From an uncultured Pelagibacteraceae bacterium (GTDB lineage Bacteria; Pseudomonadota; Alphaproteobacteria; Pelagibacterales; Pelagibacteraceae), in contig CACJUF010000002.1 in assembly GCA_902596515.1 (NCBI GenBank), positions 20,100 to 84,099 on the forward strand: a DNA stretch of 64,000 nucleotides, given 5' to 3'. Under the pieces are notes generated by a model. The model was not told the origin of the DNA and ran no database searches. It saw nothing but the letters and a program-made list of their open reading frames with translations. Of this stretch, positions 28,052 to 36,962 are shown piece by piece (position 1 is the stretch's first letter; each line of letters begins with the position of its first letter). A program made the position numbers and the translations under genes.

Positions 28052-28967
28052 AATTGTTGCTATACAAGGAAATCACCCTTCTAAACTAAATCCAAAAACA
28101 GATACAAGTATTTTTTTAGCCAATGAAATTCAAAAAAAGAAATATAGAATTTTTTATTATGACCCTAAAGATTTATCTATCGTAGATTCAAAAGTTATAG
28201 CAAAAGGTTTTTTTATTAAGTTTAATTATAATGATAAAAAATTTTACAAAATTTTAAAAAAACAAAACTTAAATCTTATCAAATGTAAATATATCTTAAT
28301 AAGACAGGATCCTCCTTTTAATCTAGAATATATATCTACAACTTTTATTCTTGAGAAAATTAAGGACAAAGTAAAAATTATAAACGATCCTACTTCAATC
28401 AGAAATATTTCTGAAAAACTTTATTCAGCCAAATATCTAAGATTTATGCCTAATACAATTTTTACTCAAAATATTCATGAAATTAAAAATTTTTTCAAAA
28501 AGAATAAAAGTGTAATTTTAAAACCTATCCACAGTTTTAGTGGAAACGATATTCATTTACTGAATAAATTTAAATTAAATTTTGTAAAAAAATTTGTTAA
28601 AAAACATGATCATATAATGTGTCAAAAATTTTTACCTAAAATTAGCAAAGGGGATAAGAGAGTATTTTTGATTAATGGAAAAATATGTGGTGCGATTTCT
28701 AGAGTACCTAAAAAAGGATCATTTCTAAGTAACATGAGTAAAGGAGCAGCACCAATAAATATTCAATTAACGAAATTAGAAAAAAGAATATCAAATATAA
28801 TTGCAAAAGATTTAAAGAAAGAAAAAATTTATTTTGCTGGGATCGATTTTATCGATCAAAAACTAAATGGTGATATCAATGTTACATCTCCGACTGGATT
28901 AAAAACTTTATTCGATATATCTAAGATTAATCTTGCCAAAATTTTTTGGAAAGATTTAAAAGCATGA
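28041..28967 (+). CDS. gshB: Glutathione synthetase
   Basis: RQDPPF, SEKL, GDKRVFL.NG, RVP..G.F.SN...G, INVTSPTG. Confidence 0.95.
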   Translation: MTNKIVAIQGNHPSKLNPKTDTSIFLANEIQKKKYRIFYYDPKDLSIVDSKVIAKGFFIKFNYNDKKFYKILKKQNLNLIKCKYILIRQDPPFNLEYISTTFILEKIKDKVKIINDPTSIRNISEKLYSAKYLRFMPNTIFTQNIHEIKNFFKKNKSVILKPIHSFSGNDIHLLNKFKLNFVKKFVKKHDHIMCQKFLPKISKGDKRVFLINGKICGAISRVPKKGSFLSNMSKGAAPINIQLTKLEKRISNIIAKDLKKEKIYFAGIDFIDQKLNGDINVTSPTGLKTLFDISKINLAKIFWKDLKA

Positions 28968-29824
28968 AAAATTTAACGGATCAGCAAAAAGGATCGCTGC
29001 TTGCATTCGTAGCTGTAATGTTTATTACACCTGACTCTTTATTTATCAGGCTTTCTAATATCGACACTTGGGGTCTTGTTTTTTATCGCGGAATAATTCC
29101 ATTCTTAACAGTTTTTTTTGGAATGCTATTAATTTATAAATTAAATTTTTTTAAAATACTTTTTACAAGTGGTTATCATGGTATTATTTATGTGGCTACT
29201 TTTAGTATTACAAACATTACATTTGTAGTCTCTATTCAAAATACAAATGTAGCAAATACTTTGGTAATGATAGCAACCGCACCGATGCTATCAGCAATAC
29301 TTGGTGCCATCGTTTTAAAGGAACCTCCAGACAAAAAAACTTGGCTTTCAGTAATTGTCACTTTTTTTGCAATTATCTATATTTTTTTCGATTCTCTTCA
29401 ATTAGGTAACTTTTATGGTGATATCTTAGGATTTATCACCGCAATTGGTCTTGCTGTGGGTGCTATTACTATCAGATCTGCAAAATCCAAAAATTTAGTT
29501 CCAGCAGCGGTAGTAGGCAAACTATTTGTTGCCACTTTCGCTTTATTCTTTATTGACAGTTTTGCTCTTTTAGAAAAAGACCTGATTATAGTGCCTTTAA
29601 TGTGCATTTTGTGTGTTGCTATACCTTTTGTTTTAGTGACTATTGCTCCAAGGTTTATTCCTGCTGCAGAGGTTAACTTGTTTTTTTTGCTAGAAACGAT
29701 AATAGGTCCTATTTGGGTTTGGTTGATTATTAAAGAACAACCAAGTATTGAAACTCTTTATGGTGGGATTGTTATTATAACGACCATTGCAATTCACTCT
29801 TTTTTAAAGCTTAAAAATTCTTAA
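28946..29824 (+). CDS. DMT/EamA-family transporter
   Basis: Ten TM; PAAEVNLFFLLETIIGPIWVW. Confidence 0.88.
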   Translation: MERFKSMKNLTDQQKGSLLAFVAVMFITPDSLFIRLSNIDTWGLVFYRGIIPFLTVFFGMLLIYKLNFFKILFTSGYHGIIYVATFSITNITFVVSIQNTNVANTLVMIATAPMLSAILGAIVLKEPPDKKTWLSVIVTFFAIIYIFFDSLQLGNFYGDILGFITAIGLAVGAITIRSAKSKNLVPAAVVGKLFVATFALFFIDSFALLEKDLIIVPLMCILCVAIPFVLVTIAPRFIPAAEVNLFFLLETIIGPIWVWLIIKEQPSIETLYGGIVIITTIAIHSFLKLKNS

Positions 29825-29882
29825 GCTTGTCACAATTAAGACTTGATTTAATAATACATCGCGAATACTTACGGCTGATTTT

Positions 29883-31223
29883 ATGGATAAAGTTTTAAAA
29901 AATTCGTGGGCTCTATTTTTGGGCATGGGATGCATAATGATGGCCTATGGCTTACAAGGATCTTTACTTGGAGTTAGAGCTGTCCAAGAAGAATTTAGTC
30001 TTACTTCCACCGGCTTTATGATGTCAGGATATTTTGTTGGTTATTTCATAGGAGCTGCAACTATACCTAAAATTATTTCCAGAGTTGGACATATAAGAGT
30101 TTTTGCTGCATTTGCTTCTTTAGCATCATTGATAATTTTAATTCATTCAATATTAGTAAATCCATTTATATGGTTTTTACTCAGAGTGCTTACTGGAATA
30201 AGTATGGTTTGTATTTACACTGTTGCAGAGAGTTGGCTAAACGATAGATCAAGCAACAAAAATAGAGGAAGTGTTTTATCTGTTTATATGGTCGTTCTTT
30301 ATGGAACAATGGGGATTGGAATGTTTTTGCTTAACTTTAGTAGTCCTAAAAATTTTCAACCATTTATTTTAGTTTCTGTAATTACTTCAGCTGCACTGAT
30401 TCCTATTTTGCTAACAAAAAAAAAACCACCTACTTTTAAAAGTATTAAAGCTATGAAACTTAAAGAACTTTATCATGCATCTCCATTTGGTATGGTAAGT
30501 TCTCTTTTTTATGGAACTATTCAATCTGCATTGTTTACTTTATTGGCTGTTTATGCAACCTCAATGAATTTTACTATATTAGAAATTTCAATTGTGACTT
30601 TCCTTTTAGCAGTCTCAGGAGCAATAGCTCAATTTCCAATAGGAAAAATATCCGATATGTATGATAGAAGAAAAGTTATTGTTTTTAGCACGTTTGGTGC
30701 TGCAATGTTTTCAATTTTTGCAATATTGGTATCAAGACAAATGTATTTACCTGGAAGCCTTGCAACTAGCAAAACATGGTTTTATATTTTTTTTATTTTA
30801 TTTTCTTTTTGTAGCTTGCCTATGTTTTCATTAATTTTAGCTCATACAAATGACTACATATCAAAAGATAAATTTGTTGCTGCTGGTGCAGGACTACAGT
30901 TTGCATTTGGATTAGGTGCTATGAGTGGGCCATTTTTGTGCTCAATATTTATGGACTTAGTTGGTTCAAATGGATTTTTTGTATTTTTATTTTTCTTTCA
31001 TTGCATCATAGGTTTTTTTGGTATTTATCGAATGAAAGTAAGACAGAGTGTTGATAACCCCGATTCCCAATTTGTTGCTATGCCGCAAACAATTACTCCA
31101 GCTGGAATAGAGTTAAATCCAACAACGGAACATATTGAAGAACCCTACTCAGACAAAGTGAAAGAAATATTAGAGAGAAAAGGTGTTAAATATAAAAAAG
31201 ATGAAGATGAAATTAAAGTTTAA
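29883..31223 (+). CDS. MFS transporter (YcaD-like)
   Basis: RVGHIRVFAAFAS, AESWLN, PIGKISD..DRR. Confidence 0.9.
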   Translation: MDKVLKNSWALFLGMGCIMMAYGLQGSLLGVRAVQEEFSLTSTGFMMSGYFVGYFIGAATIPKIISRVGHIRVFAAFASLASLIILIHSILVNPFIWFLLRVLTGISMVCIYTVAESWLNDRSSNKNRGSVLSVYMVVLYGTMGIGMFLLNFSSPKNFQPFILVSVITSAALIPILLTKKKPPTFKSIKAMKLKELYHASPFGMVSSLFYGTIQSALFTLLAVYATSMNFTILEISIVTFLLAVSGAIAQFPIGKISDMYDRRKVIVFSTFGAAMFSIFAILVSRQMYLPGSLATSKTWFYIFFILFSFCSLPMFSLILAHTNDYISKDKFVAAGAGLQFAFGLGAMSGPFLCSIFMDLVGSNGFFVFLFFFHCIIGFFGIYRMKVRQSVDNPDSQFVAMPQTITPAGIELNPTTEHIEEPYSDKVKEILERKGVKYKKDEDEIKV

Positions 31224-31855: not shown

Positions 31856-32029
31856 GCAACTTTAATAATATTTACGTTCGATTTATGCAAAAAGATTATG
31901 AATTTTGTTATTTTTAACAAGTATTAATCACTTACAGGTTGAAACTCAAAATAAGCACTAAAGAGCTAAAGCGAAGATTGAAACATTGAAAAAATATAAA
32001 ATATTTGTTCTTATACACGAATAAAAAAA

Positions 32030-32767
32030 ATGTCTAAAAAAAAAATTAAACAAAAAAAAATAAAAAAAAAAATTGGGGTTGTAAAGATTGCTAATTTTTC
32101 TACTAAATCCTTTTTAAGTACTGCAATTTCTAATTACAAAAAAAACAAGGAACTTAATAAAATCAAAGCTATAAAATTAGAAAAACTACAAGAAAAAAAT
32201 CAAATCCTTAAAGAGAGAAAAGATCTTAAAATTTGGGAAGAAAGACTCATTAAAGAAAGCAATAAATTAAAATTTAATGAAGATGAATTAAGATTAAAAG
32301 AAAAAGAAATTAAGATTAAAGAGGACGCACAAAAGTTAGAGTCAACTCGATTAATGAAAAAAGATGAAGAGTTAGTACTTATAAGTAAAGAACTAAGAGC
32401 TAAAGAGAAAGAACTAAAATTAAGAGAAGAGTCTCAAAATAGAAAAGATATTGATTTAAAGGTTCGAGAAGAAGAGCAAAAAAACTTTGAACTTAAAGAA
32501 AAAAGAAGAAAAGAAAGAGCCTTAAAAATGATTAAAGAAGAAGAAGAAAAACAGAAAGAACTTGAATTTATTAAAATAAAAGAATGGGAAGAAAAATTTG
32601 ATAGAGAACAAAAAGCAAAAGAACATAGAGAAAATTTAAGAGAAGAGAGATTAAGACAAAGAGAATTAGAAAAAATTAAATCATTCGAAAAAACTGAAAA
32701 TCCTGTTGACAAAAATCTTTCCTCAGGATTAGAAAAATTTGAAGTAGATATTACGAAAGAAAATTAA
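32030..32767 (+). CDS. Lys/Glu/Arg-rich coiled-coil hypothetical protein
   Basis: 245-aa ORF dominated by K/E/R with heptad spacing of Leu/Ile. Confidence 0.7.
   Translation: MSKKKIKQKKIKKKIGVVKIANFSTKSFLSTAISNYKKNKELNKIKAIKLEKLQEKNQILKERKDLKIWEERLIKESNKLKFNEDELRLKEKEIKIKEDAQKLESTRLMKKDEELVLISKELRAKEKELKLREESQNRKDIDLKVREEEQKNFELKEKRRKERALKMIKEEEEKQKELEFIKIKEWEEKFDREQKAKEHRENLREERLRQRELEKIKSFEKTENPVDKNLSSGLEKFEVDITKEN
32285..32473 (+). repeat. Degenerate 21-nt (heptad) tandem repeat inside the coiled-coil ORF
   Basis: Units in a 21-nt register at 32285 (gaattaagattaaaagaaaaa), 32306, 32369, 32390 (gaactaagagctaaagagaaa), 32411 and 32453. Confidence 0.6.
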
Positions 32768-33885
32768 TTTTTCTGAATAGGGAAATAATCTTTTAAATCA
32801 CCTTCCCTATAAACATCAGCTGTACAACAATGAATACCGCCGCCAAAGGCATATGCATCTCTTAATTCGACAGGGACAACTTCCATTCCTAATTTATCTA
32901 ATTGTTCAGCTTGGTAAATTTCACTTTTTTCGACGCAAACTGTTTTTGGATCAAGAACTAAAACATTCATAGATAACCATACTGATGAGTAACAAAGTGG
33001 TGGTGGTTCATTATGTGCTGGCTGAGCGCTATCAATTATTTTCCATCCATTGTCCTCAAATAATTTTCTTTGTTCTTTTGGTAGTCTTCTTTGAGGATTA
33101 TTTATAATTAAACCTTCTTTAATGGGTGTAAAAGTTGCATCAATATGAATTGGATATGGATCACCTGGAAAATTAACAGCATGAACTCTATGATCTTTAA
33201 AATGTCTTCTTAACCAATCAATTCCTTTTAAATTTGTTGTAAAACCATGTTGTACAATTAAGTCCTTCCCGAACCTCAAAACATCTGCAGCATCAAATAA
33301 AGGTTCCTCTTCTGTTGTTACAAAGAATTTTTCTTCAGTCCATTTAAGTCTTTTTTGAATACCGATCTTGTCTGACAAATAATCTTCACGGTAATCTGCG
33401 TCTGTTAATCTTGGTTTTGGTGCAGTTTCATGACGCATATTCTTGTCTATTTCAAAATATTTTTTAATCAGCGGTCTATAATTTAGATATTCAAACCATC
33501 TACATCTATAGCTCATTGTTGCTTCGAGCATTTCATTTCCAACTGTAAGTATAATATCTCTAGCTGGCATACATCCGAACATACTATCAACCTTCCAATC
33601 GGGAGTAGAAATTTTTTGATTATGATTAAGTGGAACTGGTCGGTCAACTTTAATGCCTCTTTTTTTCAAGATTGAAGCAAAATTATTTAATAGCTCATTT
33701 GCTTTATCGACTGTATCTTTAGTACGAGGTCCATGGGAACCTTTCATATCTGAATCTTCGGGTACTTTAGCATCTAAAGCAGGTTCTGGTGCAGGTATAC
33801 AACAACCGTCTGCTTTCCCAACTATAACATGTTTAAGTGGATCCCATTCGTTCCAACTATTTACAATAACTTTGTCCTTACTCAT
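32764..33885 (-). CDS. Amidinotransferase, glycine amidinotransferase (AGAT)-like
   Basis: VNSWNEWDPL..VIVG, RD....VG.E..EA.M, FDAAD (Asp), IHIDATF (His), GGGIHCCT (Cys). Confidence 0.92.
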   Translation of the reverse strand: MSKDKVIVNSWNEWDPLKHVIVGKADGCCIPAPEPALDAKVPEDSDMKGSHGPRTKDTVDKANELLNNFASILKKRGIKVDRPVPLNHNQKISTPDWKVDSMFGCMPARDIILTVGNEMLEATMSYRCRWFEYLNYRPLIKKYFEIDKNMRHETAPKPRLTDADYREDYLSDKIGIQKRLKWTEEKFFVTTEEEPLFDAADVLRFGKDLIVQHGFTTNLKGIDWLRRHFKDHRVHAVNFPGDPYPIHIDATFTPIKEGLIINNPQRRLPKEQRKLFEDNGWKIIDSAQPAHNEPPPLCYSSVWLSMNVLVLDPKTVCVEKSEIYQAEQLDKLGMEVVPVELRDAYAFGGGIHCCTADVYREGDLKDYFPIQKN

Positions 33886-33894
33886 GTTTCAAGA

Positions 33895-34800
33895 TTAATT
33901 TAAAGCTATAAATCTTTTATTCCATCGCATTAACAAACTGTAATAAATTAATGAAATAAATAGAAAAAAACCTCCGACTATAGTGTAAGTATCAGGCACC
34001 TCATTTATGCCTAAGATAGGTAACCAAACCCAAAAAATTCCACCTATAACTTCAGTTAATGATAATAATGTTAATTCTGCAGCAGGAATAGCTTTCGAAC
34101 CAATAGAATATAAAATTAGCCCTAAACAAACTAATGATCCATGCAAGGAAAATAATGCTCCATTATAGCTTGTTGAAAAGAACACTTGTTTAGTGCTCAA
34201 AAGCATTATAGCTGCAAAAACAAAACAAAAAAAACCTGAAAAAGCAACAGTTGTAAACTTTGGAGTTTGTGTTCTCCACCTAAGAGTTACAGAAAAAATA
34301 GAAAATCCAATTGATGAAAGCATTCCAAAAATAAAACCAACAATAGAATTTGATCCAGTACTTCCAAACGCCATAATTATAATTCCGATCGTTGCAATAG
34401 AAATAGATATCCAAACATTTAATGAAATTTTCTCTTTAAGAAATAAAAAAGCAAGAAGTGCAGTAAAAAAAGGCATTGCTGCCAAACAAAGCAAAGTGAT
34501 TGCAGCTGATGTATTGGTAATTGAGTAGATAAAACTTATCATCGCAATTCCTAATCCGGTTCCACCAATAATGCCTGAGTATCCCATTTTTAAATAATTT
34601 TTATAAAATTTAATCCCCTCTTCAAAATAAAGATAAAGATTTAAAAGAATAAAAATTGTTAATCCTCTGCCAAAAATATACTGCCATGGCACCTGATTAG
34701 GATTATCCATATATCTCACAACAAGAGGGCCAAAAGACCATAAAATTCCTGCGAACAAAACTACTGGAACTGCGATTTTTGGATTTTTTAATTCAAGCAT
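33895..34800 (-). CDS. DMT/EamA-family transporter
   Basis: Ten TM; IPAAELTLLSLTEVIGGIFWVW; 9 nt upstream of the amidinotransferase. Confidence 0.88.
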   Translation of the reverse strand: MLELKNPKIAVPVVLFAGILWSFGPLVVRYMDNPNQVPWQYIFGRGLTIFILLNLYLYFEEGIKFYKNYLKMGYSGIIGGTGLGIAMISFIYSITNTSAAITLLCLAAMPFFTALLAFLFLKEKISLNVWISISIATIGIIIMAFGSTGSNSIVGFIFGMLSSIGFSIFSVTLRWRTQTPKFTTVAFSGFFCFVFAAIMLLSTKQVFFSTSYNGALFSLHGSLVCLGLILYSIGSKAIPAAELTLLSLTEVIGGIFWVWLPILGINEVPDTYTIVGGFFLFISLIYYSLLMRWNKRFIALN

Positions 34801-34835
34801 TCGGGAAGAATAAATCTAAAAATTTATAACTACAA
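34798..34835 (-). promoter_or_regulatory. Candidate sigma70 promoter, leaderless DMT-amidinotransferase mRNA
   Basis: Minus strand TTGTAG (34835-34830), 17 nt, TATTCT (34812-34807), 6 nt, ATG (34800). Confidence 0.45.
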
Positions 34836-34943
34836 CAAAAATGAGATAGCTTTAATCTTAAATTTAACTTTTCCATTTAAAGTTGTGTTCAGACTATTTC
34901 TATTCTTGATTGGTTTTTATTTGTCATGTAATTAAAAATTAAT

Positions 34944-35342
34944 ATGGATTTAGAAGTTCTTCGCATTGCTGCAAACACAGATAACAATCGAAATATTGAG
35001 AACCGGACACATGTCTCAAAGTTAAAAAATCCAGTTTGCGGGGATGAAATGCAAATAGAGCTTATTTTAAAAAATGAAAAAATTTTAGACTTTGGGTATC
35101 AAGGTAAATCTTGTGTATACTGCCAGGCATCAGCCAGTTTATTATCGAAAATTTCTATAAATAATCAAAAAGAAAAAATTAACGATTTATGTGATAAAGC
35201 CGAATTATATTTTAATGATGATGTAAAAATTATAGATAAAAAATGGAATTCTTTGAAAAAATTGATTAAGAAAAAAAATATCAATAAAAAAGATTGTATA
35301 TTGTTACCTTTCAAAACTTTAAAAAAAATAGTATCAAGTTAA
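34944..35342 (+). CDS. IscU/SufU (NifU N-terminal) family protein
   Basis: NPVCGD, SCVYCQASAS, KKDCILLPF. Confidence 0.85.
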   Translation: MDLEVLRIAANTDNNRNIENRTHVSKLKNPVCGDEMQIELILKNEKILDFGYQGKSCVYCQASASLLSKISINNQKEKINDLCDKAELYFNDDVKIIDKKWNSLKKLIKKKNINKKDCILLPFKTLKKIVSS

Positions 35343-35345
35343 ATT

Positions 35346-35810
35346 ATGGGTAATCTTAAACAATCTCTTTTAGCTGGTTTATTTTCAATAATTACAATTG
35401 GAATTTTAACTTTCCTAACTTATAGAACAGAATTTGGGATCTTTCTGTTAGCCTCATTTGGATCATCTATGGTTTTACTTTATGGATATCCTGAAAGTCC
35501 ATTTGCCCAACCAAAAAATGTTTTTTTCGGTCATTTAGTTACCGCCATCGTAGGTTTACTTTTTTTAAACTTTGTTCCATTACCAATATTTTTAACCATA
35601 CCATTAGCAGTAGGATTTGGGGTTGGATTAATGATTTTTTTAAATGTTACACACCCACCTGCGGGAGGTAATCCAATAATAGTTATTATTGGTAGTGTCT
35701 CTTTTGATTACTTGCTTAGTCCTGTAATATCAGGATCAGTTATAATTATTATTTTTGCAATAATTGTTAACAAATTTATTTTGAGAAAATCTTATCCAAG
35801 CCAAAAATAA
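35346..35810 (+). CDS. HPP-family membrane protein
   Basis: ASFGSS.VLL.G.PESPFAQP.N, THPPAGGNP. Confidence 0.92.
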   Translation: MGNLKQSLLAGLFSIITIGILTFLTYRTEFGIFLLASFGSSMVLLYGYPESPFAQPKNVFFGHLVTAIVGLLFLNFVPLPIFLTIPLAVGFGVGLMIFLNVTHPPAGGNPIIVIIGSVSFDYLLSPVISGSVIIIIFAIIVNKFILRKSYPSQK

Positions 35811-35814
35811 TTTT

Positions 35815-35898
35815 TTATGAAATTATAAAATTATTTTCAATAAGTAGACCTATTAATATTCCTATTGCTAATGCTATAATTAATTTCTTCTTATTCAC
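35815..35898 (-). CDS. Small membrane peptide ORF MNKKKLIIALAIGILIGLLIENNFIIS (27 aa), not in the ORF track
   Basis: GTG start overlaps the permease TGA stop (GTGA, 35898-35895); basic N-terminus plus hydrophobic helix with GxxxG; TAA at 35817-35815. Confidence 0.45.
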   Translation of the reverse strand: MNKKKLIIALAIGILIGLLIENNFIIS

Positions 35899-36962
35899 TT
35901 TTTTAGTACTGTAGATTTTACACCTTTGATGCCAGATGAAGACAATTTTAATTTCATACTTTGCTTAAGATTTTCCCAAAGTTTAGCCATTCCTAAAGGT
36001 TCATAAATCATAAATATTATCATTAAAAGACCAAATATTACCTGTTCGATTGATGAAATAATTGTAGCATCAATAGCTCCATGAAATACATTGTTTCCTA
36101 TAGCATTTAAAAGAACTGGAAAAAGTAAAATAAATGCTGCCCCAATAAAAGCACCATTAATAGTCCCAAGTCCGCCAAGAATGCACATGAATAAGATTTT
36201 AAAAGATAACTTAATATCAAAAGCAACTGGCTCTAAAGATTTTAGATAACAAAATGCAAAAAGAGCACCAGCTACACCACAATAAAATGCACTAATAGCA
36301 AATGCTTGAACTTTAGTTCTTAATAATGAAACTCCCATGGACTCAGCAGCAATATCCATATCTCTAACTGCCATCCAATTTCTGCCTGTACTTCCTCTTG
36401 CCATATTCATAGCCAATAAAGTTAAAATCGTGGTTACAGCTAAACATACAAAATACATAGCTAATGGTGTTGTAAATGGTTTTCCAAAGATTATTATGTC
36501 TTGTGCAGTTATAATTCCTGAAGAATCATAGTTTTTAAACCATCCAAATTTATCTATCATCCATATAATAAAAAACTGTGAGGCTAATGTTGCTACCATA
36601 AGATAAATTCCCCTTACTTTTAAACTTGGTAGACCAAATAAAATTCCAAAAGCTGCAGCAATTAAACCTGAAACTATGAGTGATCCAACAAAACCAAGAT
36701 CAGGCACTCGTAAAATAAGATTAAACATTGCAAAAGCACCTGCAGCCATAAACCCGGCAGCACCCAAAGCTAATTGTCCCGTATACCCCATTACAATTTG
36801 TTGTCCAATAGTAGCTAATGCCAGGCAAAGCCAAGGAATTAATATAGAGGTATACCAATATTCTGTTTTAATAAATGTCGGTATTATTAATACACTTAAA
36901 ACCATACAAACAGCTAAGTTGATCAGGTCTTTTTTTGTGTAAGTCATAAAAACTGGTTTCAT
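35895..36962 (-). CDS. livM: HAAT-family ABC permease (LivM-like)
   Basis: GYTGQLALG..GFM, GLPSLKVRG.YL..ATLA, GRNW.AVRD...AA..MG, GGLG.I.G...GA. Confidence 0.9.
   Translation of the reverse strand: MKPVFMTYTKKDLINLAVCMVLSVLIIPTFIKTEYWYTSILIPWLCLALATIGQQIVMGYTGQLALGAAGFMAAGAFAMFNLILRVPDLGFVGSLIVSGLIAAAFGILFGLPSLKVRGIYLMVATLASQFFIIWMIDKFGWFKNYDSSGIITAQDIIIFGKPFTTPLAMYFVCLAVTTILTLLAMNMARGSTGRNWMAVRDMDIAAESMGVSLLRTKVQAFAISAFYCGVAGALFAFCYLKSLEPVAFDIKLSFKILFMCILGGLGTINGAFIGAAFILLFPVLLNAIGNNVFHGAIDATIISSIEQVIFGLLMIIFMIYEPLGMAKLWENLKQSMKLKLSSSGIKGVKSTVLKK

Follow-up and report, generated by a model that had tools for sequence, protein, structure and literature searches.

What does a streamlined marine bacterium do with an amidinotransferase of the AGAT family that is paired with a membrane carrier and has other residues at the acceptor site than AGAT itself? 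The question is raised by two adjacent genes in a 64,000-nucleotide stretch of DNA (here called the window) from an uncultured Pelagibacteraceae bacterium (GenBank assembly GCA_902596515.1, contig CACJUF010000002.1, positions 20,100 to 84,099), whose genome is 1.13 Mb and 92% complete. Both genes lie on the minus strand, exactly where the first-pass annotation of this DNA had put them. The first of the pair (33895 to 34800) encodes P0002, a 301-amino-acid membrane transporter of the EamA/DMT family, and the second (32764 to 33885) encodes P0001, the 373-amino-acid amidinotransferase. We propose, with about even confidence, that they form a two-gene salvage unit that takes up guanidinoacetate, perhaps creatine as well, and transfers the amidino group onto ornithine, so that arginine and glycine (or sarcosine) are formed.

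By alignment and structural modeling, P0001 is a genuine member of the amidinotransferase family. It aligned with human AGAT (1jdw) over 361 residues (phmmer E 2.7e-85, 290 bits), and its residues D198, H247 and C353 fell on the catalytic triad D254, H303 and C407, which bears out the intact Asp/His/Cys triad noted in the first-pass annotation. The guanidinium-binding pair D110/D249 (D170/D305 in human AGAT) and the carboxylate binders R266/S301 (R322/S355) are also conserved in the alignment. Across 56 aligned sequences reaching down to 28% identity, H247 and C353 were invariant and D198 was at least 90% conserved. The AlphaFold2 model built on that alignment (pLDDT 95.1, pTM 0.93) has the five-fold alpha/beta propeller (pentein) fold of amidinotransferases. 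Foldseek matched it to 1jdw and 4jdw with TM-scores of 0.90 and 0.93 (root mean square deviation of 1.9 Å, 40 to 42% identity); the best matches were 4jdw, 1jdw and 2jdx (TM 0.89 to 0.93), followed by SxtG, HsvA and StrB1. Weak Pfam and NCBIfam matches to the arginine deiminase (ADI) and DDAH models (27.2 and 22.7 bits, respectively) would fit another branch of the superfamily, one of hydrolases or deiminases such as ADI, DDAH, or a guanidino-acid hydrolase. However, solved amidinotransferases are far closer to P0001 (E about 1e-85 to 1e-51, TM 0.85 to 0.93) than are ADI and DDAH structures (TM 0.55 to 0.64, 12 to 16% identity), and R266 and S301, the binders of the ornithine or arginine carboxylate, are kept. 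The gap in TM-score between human AGAT and ADI/DDAH thus argues for an amidinotransferase, and we regard a hydrolase as highly improbable.

The acceptor site is where P0001 departs from AGAT. In the human enzyme, the loop known as the 300-flap reads D298-P-N300-P-M302-H303 (PMC4887976), while in P0001 the same positions read D242-P-Y244-P-I246-H247, the DPYPIH loop that had been reported from the sequence. The AGAT-specific residues Asn300 and Met302 are therefore replaced by Y244 and I246, and for this reason we filed P0001 under the amidinotransferase family and did not adopt EC 2.1.4.1. The corresponding flap is D-I-F-P-S in CyrA and D-M-H-P-M in AmtA, and flap residues govern specificity (PMC4887976, PMC3684758), in agreement with the background on human AGAT and CyrA that the first-pass annotation had given. 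CyrA is strict for glycine and carries Phe245 at the N300 position, and replacement of Phe245 broadens its specificity (PMC4887976, PMC3684758). By analogy, the aromatic residue at position 244 of P0001 suggests a small, glycine-like partner.

This altered flap is a clade-wide signature and not peculiar to the host genome, so that the "altered acceptor site" claimed earlier stands as a difference from AGAT but not as a special property of this organism. The motif PGDPYPIHIDA was present in 116 of the 121 closest proteins (73 to 100% identity), nearly all of which also carry the pocket motif PLCYSS[VTI]W, at the place where human AGAT has PLWMSSKW. In an exhaustive search of 1.8 billion cluster representatives, the next full-length relatives were at most 46% identical and had other residues at the flap and pocket positions; among 60-odd full-length representatives, no relative outside the clade had the full flap and pocket signature. 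Variants occur within SAR11. A paralogue found in Pelagibacter shows TYYS where P0001 has CYSS, a HIMB59-like genome has the flap DLIPTH, and in a second SAR11 family (loci L109, L110, L112, L113 and L118) one lineage has DPFPTH and the other DPYPIH. The best matches in a plasmid collection, from Photobacterium (54%) and Streptomyces (52%), are unannotated and have different flaps. Several clade members (P0015, P0017, P0019, P0042, P0075 and others) are labeled "serine/threonine protein kinase" by NCBI, a RefSeq name that is plainly wrong, hides the family, and looks like a propagated misannotation. The JGI name for the clade, glycine amidinotransferase, was assigned by homology only.

In Pelagibacter the enzyme is nearly core. 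It was found in 161 of 200 other genomes sampled from the genus and in 34 of the 37 Pelagibacter genomes that were at least 90% complete, the host genome included; genomes of one genus are non-independent samples, and all Pelagibacter counts given here are to be read in that light. The second SAR11 family had it in 22 of 24 genomes, and two complete genomes of a sister genus were without it. An even sample of 300 other Alphaproteobacteria yielded an orthologue in five (61 to 79% identity). In the tree, the copies from Rhodobacterales and Rhizobiales join the Pelagibacter clade (95/95 support), apart from those of the second SAR11 family, a grouping that fits some horizontal exchange among marine lineages. 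Some protein clusters of the amidinotransferase contain thousands of metagenomic members; the 50%-identity cluster representatives lie on contigs of less than 2 kb, where gene context is uninformative. In one 1.6-Mb alphaproteobacterium (G237, L108:5503-14554), a 61%-identical amidinotransferase with the flap DLIPTH heads an operon resembling those for ectoine catabolism, with Amdase/EutA-like, PALP, OCD/EutC-like, second PALP, and M20 genes and an M24 gene with a creatinase N-terminal domain; an aldehyde dehydrogenase gene is divergent from this operon.

The partner, P0002, is hydrophobic throughout and matched Pfam EamA with 61.5 bits (cut-off 28.2), with the domain repeats, polytopic character and length of about 300 residues of an EamA carrier. 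The named subfamily models scored below their cut-offs (TIGR00950, 57.6 versus 230 bits; RarD, 31.7 versus 130 bits), so no named subfamily could be given. From the DMT stop codon to the ATG of the amidinotransferase there are only 9 nt (33886 to 33894, minus strand), a spacer that, from the layout of the genes, implies co-transcription. The earlier description of an AGAT-family enzyme with a non-AGAT acceptor flap, paired with a DMT carrier, holds. We compared 80 related loci, all from Pelagibacter or Pelagibacteraceae. A DMT orthologue (65 to 99% identity) lay upstream of the amidinotransferase in all 77 Pelagibacter loci in which this could be determined. It abuts the enzyme gene in 56 loci, with a gap between tblastn matches of 4 to 18 nt in 55 and of 49 nt in one, and a single inserted gene separates the two in 21; in two more the inserted gene touches a contig end, and one locus could not be assigned. 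The DMT orthologue was not found in four enzyme-free genomes (two complete, two 91 to 92% complete), where the best match was at most 30% identical, and the positive control for this search returned a DMT of 78% identity directly before creatinase and amidinotransferase genes. The carrier and the transferase are thus absent, or lost, together. In the broader search for DMT homologues, near-identical SAR11 proteins filled the results, and its reach therefore ends short of distant relatives. The nearest DMT relative in the second SAR11 family, 42 to 44% identical, was set aside as an orthologue of doubtful standing; it sits with Fe-alcohol dehydrogenase and dienelactone hydrolase genes.

Clues to the substrate came from genes found in the same operon in sister strains. 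The gene inserted between the DMT and the amidinotransferase proved to be a true creatinase by its match to 1chm, the Pseudomonas putida creatinase (E 1.5e-162), and creatinase was present in 76 of 200 genomes of the genus (about 38%). When the separate listings of creatinase and amidinotransferase coordinates were compared, creatinase was, in 65 of the 66 cases that could be determined, the gene immediately upstream of the amidinotransferase and on its strand; in the other it lay 1.7 kb off, and none of the 66 cases with both positions listed had a creatinase elsewhere in the genome. Creatinase is hydrolytic and requires creatine from outside, and the DMT is the sole carrier in the creatinase-bearing operon. 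Given this position of the creatinase, and given that strains with and without it have orthologous DMTs, the carrier probably moves creatine. In 30 of the 80 loci, the amidinotransferase is followed by another glycine-yielding enzyme, a bona fide L-threonine aldolase whose match to 1v72 has an E value of 3e-108. The simplest account of the creatinase insert, the downstream threonine aldolase and the joint loss of carrier and transferase is a unit that is catabolic and supplies glycine, with a carrier for the import of creatine-type compounds. One complete Pelagibacter genome (G471, C1:245960-246745) has a shortened creatinase directly upstream of the enzyme, covering residues 143 to 404 and containing one internal TAA, which suggests that the insert can decay in place.

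In the salvage that we propose, the DMT would import a small N-amidino amino acid from seawater, most likely guanidinoacetate and perhaps creatine too. The AGAT reaction is a reversible ping-pong that proceeds through an amidino-cysteine intermediate, as established for human AGAT, and the cytoplasmic amidinotransferase would run it in the salvage direction. Cys353 would take up the amidino group as a covalent thiouronium and release glycine, or sarcosine if the substrate is creatine, and the group would then pass to the delta-amine of ornithine to give arginine. The cell would gain glycine and ready-made arginine with no ATP spent and no urea lost. In creatinase-bearing strains, creatine would instead be hydrolyzed to sarcosine and urea, with sarcosine oxidase carrying sarcosine on to glycine. 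SAR11 bacteria are conditionally glycine-auxotrophic. The metabolic setting of the host genome speaks for this scheme, and because that genome is 92% complete, each absence reported from it means "not found" and not a proven loss. Ornithine carbamoyltransferase is present, so that ornithine is available as an acceptor, and with two soxB genes above the curated cut-off and two DMGDH-like genes the cell can use sarcosine and glycine. The only ureohydrolase is of the agmatinase type; neither arginase nor the urease alpha subunit was found in the genome, and the amidino nitrogen would therefore be worth most if kept as arginine.

Several observations weigh against this proposal. Human AGAT, with N300 and M302, already handles glycine and guanidinoacetate, so that the invariant Y/I flap of the clade, along with the changes at C298, Y299 and V302, hints at a different partner. 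The host genome contains neither a creatinase, with only distant DoeA-like M24 relatives (22 to 26% identity) found and no creatine amidinohydrolase gene in the unit itself, nor a threonine aldolase of the operon type, and key context evidence is thus borrowed from sister strains, from whose gene context we infer the substrate, the direction of transport and the direction of net flux. Outside Pelagibacter, the genes around the enzyme are unrelated, and no DMT, creatinase or shared neighbor was seen in the contexts that we checked (Aliiroseovarius, a Rhizobiales metagenome-assembled genome, two large contigs, five class-level genomes, and ten genomes of the second SAR11 family), which argues for a function independent of this operon. 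In the second SAR11 family, for example, the amidinotransferase gene lies by itself between a divergent FAD-binding/flavin monooxygenase gene and a convergent rodA-PBP2 pair. Many EamA carriers are exporters, and transport direction cannot be read from sequence. Guanidinoacetate in seawater was hardly reported in the literature that we searched, in which we found no biochemical, genetic or expression paper on this clade and only incidental mentions of an amidinotransferase together with SAR11 or Pelagibacter.

A rival reading is that the enzyme is specific for creatine and sarcosine, an arginine:sarcosine (equivalently creatine:ornithine) amidinotransferase whose Y244/I246 flap and C298/Y299/V302 pocket fit the N-methyl group. 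In creatinase-free strains, the host among them, it would be the sole route from imported creatine to sarcosine and arginine, and run forwards it would make creatine from sarcosine. Creatine is the only good substrate known for creatinase, whose gene is placed precisely between the enzyme and a DMT that is orthologous either way, the flap and pocket are unlike those of every characterized glycine-using enzyme, and the two soxB genes of the host would put sarcosine to use. Isotope tracing in the North Pacific by Boysen et al. found creatine formed from sarcosine, as the 13C3,15N1 isotopologue, and invoked "an unidentified enzyme" (PMC9321204). In strain G004, the only copy of the enzyme directly follows BHMT and dimethylglycine/sarcosine dehydrogenase genes in one co-directional run (L116:3479-11559) that continues with genes for a METTL27-like methyltransferase, a CntA-like Rieske oxygenase, a SET-domain protein and a DddP-like M24 protein. 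That strain keeps the DMT at its usual locus (L143:5001-7011), where a shortened threonine aldolase gene comes directly after it. However, the arrangement occurs in one genome only, with ten other carriers of related copies arranged differently, and we rejected it as a general clue. A secondary-amine partner is not known for any amidinotransferase, and we found no paper naming such an enzyme; the labeled creatine could, by our reasoning, have come by the classical route, with 13C-methyl S-adenosylmethionine supplied via BHMT; and two enzymes acting on one substrate are less economical than two acting on two related substrates. On balance, we consider specificity for creatine and sarcosine rather unlikely.

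The first-pass annotation had offered salvage side by side with synthesis and export, and the two can now be weighed. For synthesis, arginine and an amine would give guanidinoacetate or another guanidino metabolite that the DMT exports or that the cell keeps as a solute or nitrogen store. All characterized relatives (AGAT, CyrA, SxtG, AmtA, StrB1 and HsvA) do run biosynthetically, and the exporters common among characterized EamA carriers fit as well, as does the TYYS paralogue, which occurs in 10 to 12 of 201 genomes and has another EamA carrier and tailoring-type oxygenases behind it in what resembles a small biosynthetic cassette. Yet the genes inserted into the DMT operon, creatinase and threonine aldolase, are catabolic, and exporting a product made from arginine and glycine, neither of which SAR11 can produce freely, would be costly for a streamlined oligotroph. 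No methyltransferase lies within about 5 kb of the pair (no dedicated GAMT search was made), no tailoring gene stands beside it, and the METTL27-like methyltransferase of the G004 type has no match in the host genome. Export is thus unlikely, and salvage is favored by the creatinase, the aldolase and the joint absence of carrier and transferase, with substrate and direction resting on inference. The paralogue itself (L119-L125 and L128, e.g., L128:509-7112 and L121:2518-11664) is about 75% identical to the DMT-linked copy, with which it often co-occurs in Pelagibacter genomes. It is preceded by genes for a TauD-type dioxygenase, an HD protein and a GMC oxidoreductase, and the genes that follow encode the EamA carrier, a 2OG-Fe(II) oxygenase, a luciferase-like monooxygenase, in some cases a ThDP enzyme, an AA_synth protein and a hydrolase; the set looks like a separate guanidino-compound cassette. 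The same mechanism could also serve another amine partner, such as taurine or hypotaurine (giving taurocyamine), beta-alanine, gamma-aminobutyric acid (GABA), lysine or a diamine. SAR11 bacteria make heavy use of taurine and polyamines, and the specificity-tuning flap residues differ from those of AGAT, CyrA and AmtA. One field study bins the gene under conversion of taurine to taurocyamine through KEGG K00613 (bioRxiv 10.1101/2024.12.10.627767). Nevertheless, none of the 80 loci had a taurine, GABA or polyamine gene linked to the pair, the genes that are linked indicate creatine and glycine, and in CyrA, narrow, glycine-only specificity accompanies the aromatic residue at N300, making such a partner quite improbable.

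The salvage reading places a known kind of enzyme in a new setting. Its closest known relative is vertebrate AGAT/GATM (EC 2.1.4.1; 1jdw, 4jdw), with which P0001 shares the fold, the Cys-His-Asp triad, the Asp pair, the Arg/Ser carboxylate site and the length class of the 300-flap. It differs in the flap (DPYPIH versus DPNPMH) and pocket (CYSSVW versus WMSSKW), in two insertions of one residue each, one ahead of the flap (PG for K) and one in MPxRD, and in having no mitochondrial presequence; its gene is in an operon with a DMT carrier, to which sister strains add creatinase or threonine aldolase, no GAMT partner was seen beside it, and the physiological direction is probably reversed. CyrA/AoaA of cylindrospermopsin synthesis and SxtG of saxitoxin synthesis (6u1r), both cyanobacterial, are the closest known bacterial members of the AGAT family, and CyrA is also aromatic at the N300 position. 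However, their genes lie inside toxin clusters of polyketide synthases (PKS) and nonribosomal peptide synthetases (NRPS), neighbors that P0001 does not have; the CyrA flap is DIFPS rather than DPYPIH, and SxtG is a weaker match (E 2.4e-62, 36 to 37% identity). More distant are AmtA (arginine:lysine, phaseolotoxin), HsvA (polyamine; 5wpi) and StrB1 (inosamine phosphate; 1bwd), which belong to the same superfamily and use the covalent amidino-Cys mechanism but serve secondary-metabolite or virulence pathways, with lower similarity to P0001 (E 9e-59 and 5e-51, 32 to 33% identity) and, in StrB1, no flap. The classical bacterial degradation of creatine by creatinase and sarcosine oxidase, as in P. 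putida (creatinase 1chm), has counterparts in the operon creatinase of the sister strains and in the sarcosine oxidase genes of the host. No amidinotransferase takes part in that pathway, and its amidino nitrogen leaves as urea, whereas the Pelagibacter unit has a fixed core of carrier and transferase, with a creatinase that is optional and was not found in the host genome. What is new here is thus the clade-specific flap and pocket and the transporter operon with optional creatinase or threonine aldolase, the kind of amidinotransferase being already known.

Upstream of the pair, a 143-nt region (34801 to 34943), presumably the promoter region of the pair, separates the DMT gene from a divergent SufU/NifU-like gene (34944 to 35342, plus strand). 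An Rfam scan of positions 32000 to 36000 gave no family at or near the gathering score, so no glycine or guanidine riboswitch, nor any other RNA element, was seen upstream of the pair. Between positions 32000 and 35400, no terminator-like site was found, and promoter-like sites were no more frequent than in shuffled sequence. Within about 5 kb of the pair are genes for a second EamA carrier, an MFS carrier, cytidylate kinase, a K/E-rich open reading frame, the SufU/NifU-like protein, an HPP protein and a Liv-type ABC system, and there are no NRPS, PKS or toxin genes, as the first-pass annotation had said of toxin and NRPS genes. The K/E-rich frame (32030 to 32767, plus strand; 245 amino acids) consists of nearly all Lys, Glu and Leu, is coiled-coil-like and had no Pfam or NCBIfam match. 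It is convergent with the amidinotransferase gene, the stop regions overlapping by 4 nt, and is kept at the same place in 32 of the 80 Pelagibacter loci (36 to 98% identity). The second EamA carrier, which shares about 28% identity with the DMT, and the MFS carrier (28946 to 31223, plus strand) lie 1.5 to 4 kb past the 3' end of the amidinotransferase gene; many Pelagibacter loci retain them close to the pair. The interval between the SufU-like gene and the DMT holds inserted MobA-like and MoeA molybdopterin genes in many strains (e.g., L072:1976-3821), and the DNA downstream of the amidinotransferase is strongly variable among strains.

SAR11 bacteria make up a large share of the bacteria of the surface ocean, need glycine or a precursor from outside, and live where nitrogen is scarce. 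If the salvage reading is true, a very abundant, strongly conserved and almost universal gene pair would let them turn guanidino compounds into glycine and arginine at no ATP cost, which would add a new class of substrates to the SAR11 diet, provide a new sink for the creatine and guanidinoacetate that animals and algae release, and offer a physiological case of AGAT chemistry run backwards. The pair may also explain the field data on creatine formed from sarcosine. If the enzyme were instead a creatine:ornithine amidinotransferase, it would be the first amidinotransferase to act on an N-methylated partner and the "unidentified enzyme" of the North Pacific tracing, and the most abundant heterotroph of the ocean would be turning creatine into arginine and a glycine precursor without forming urea.

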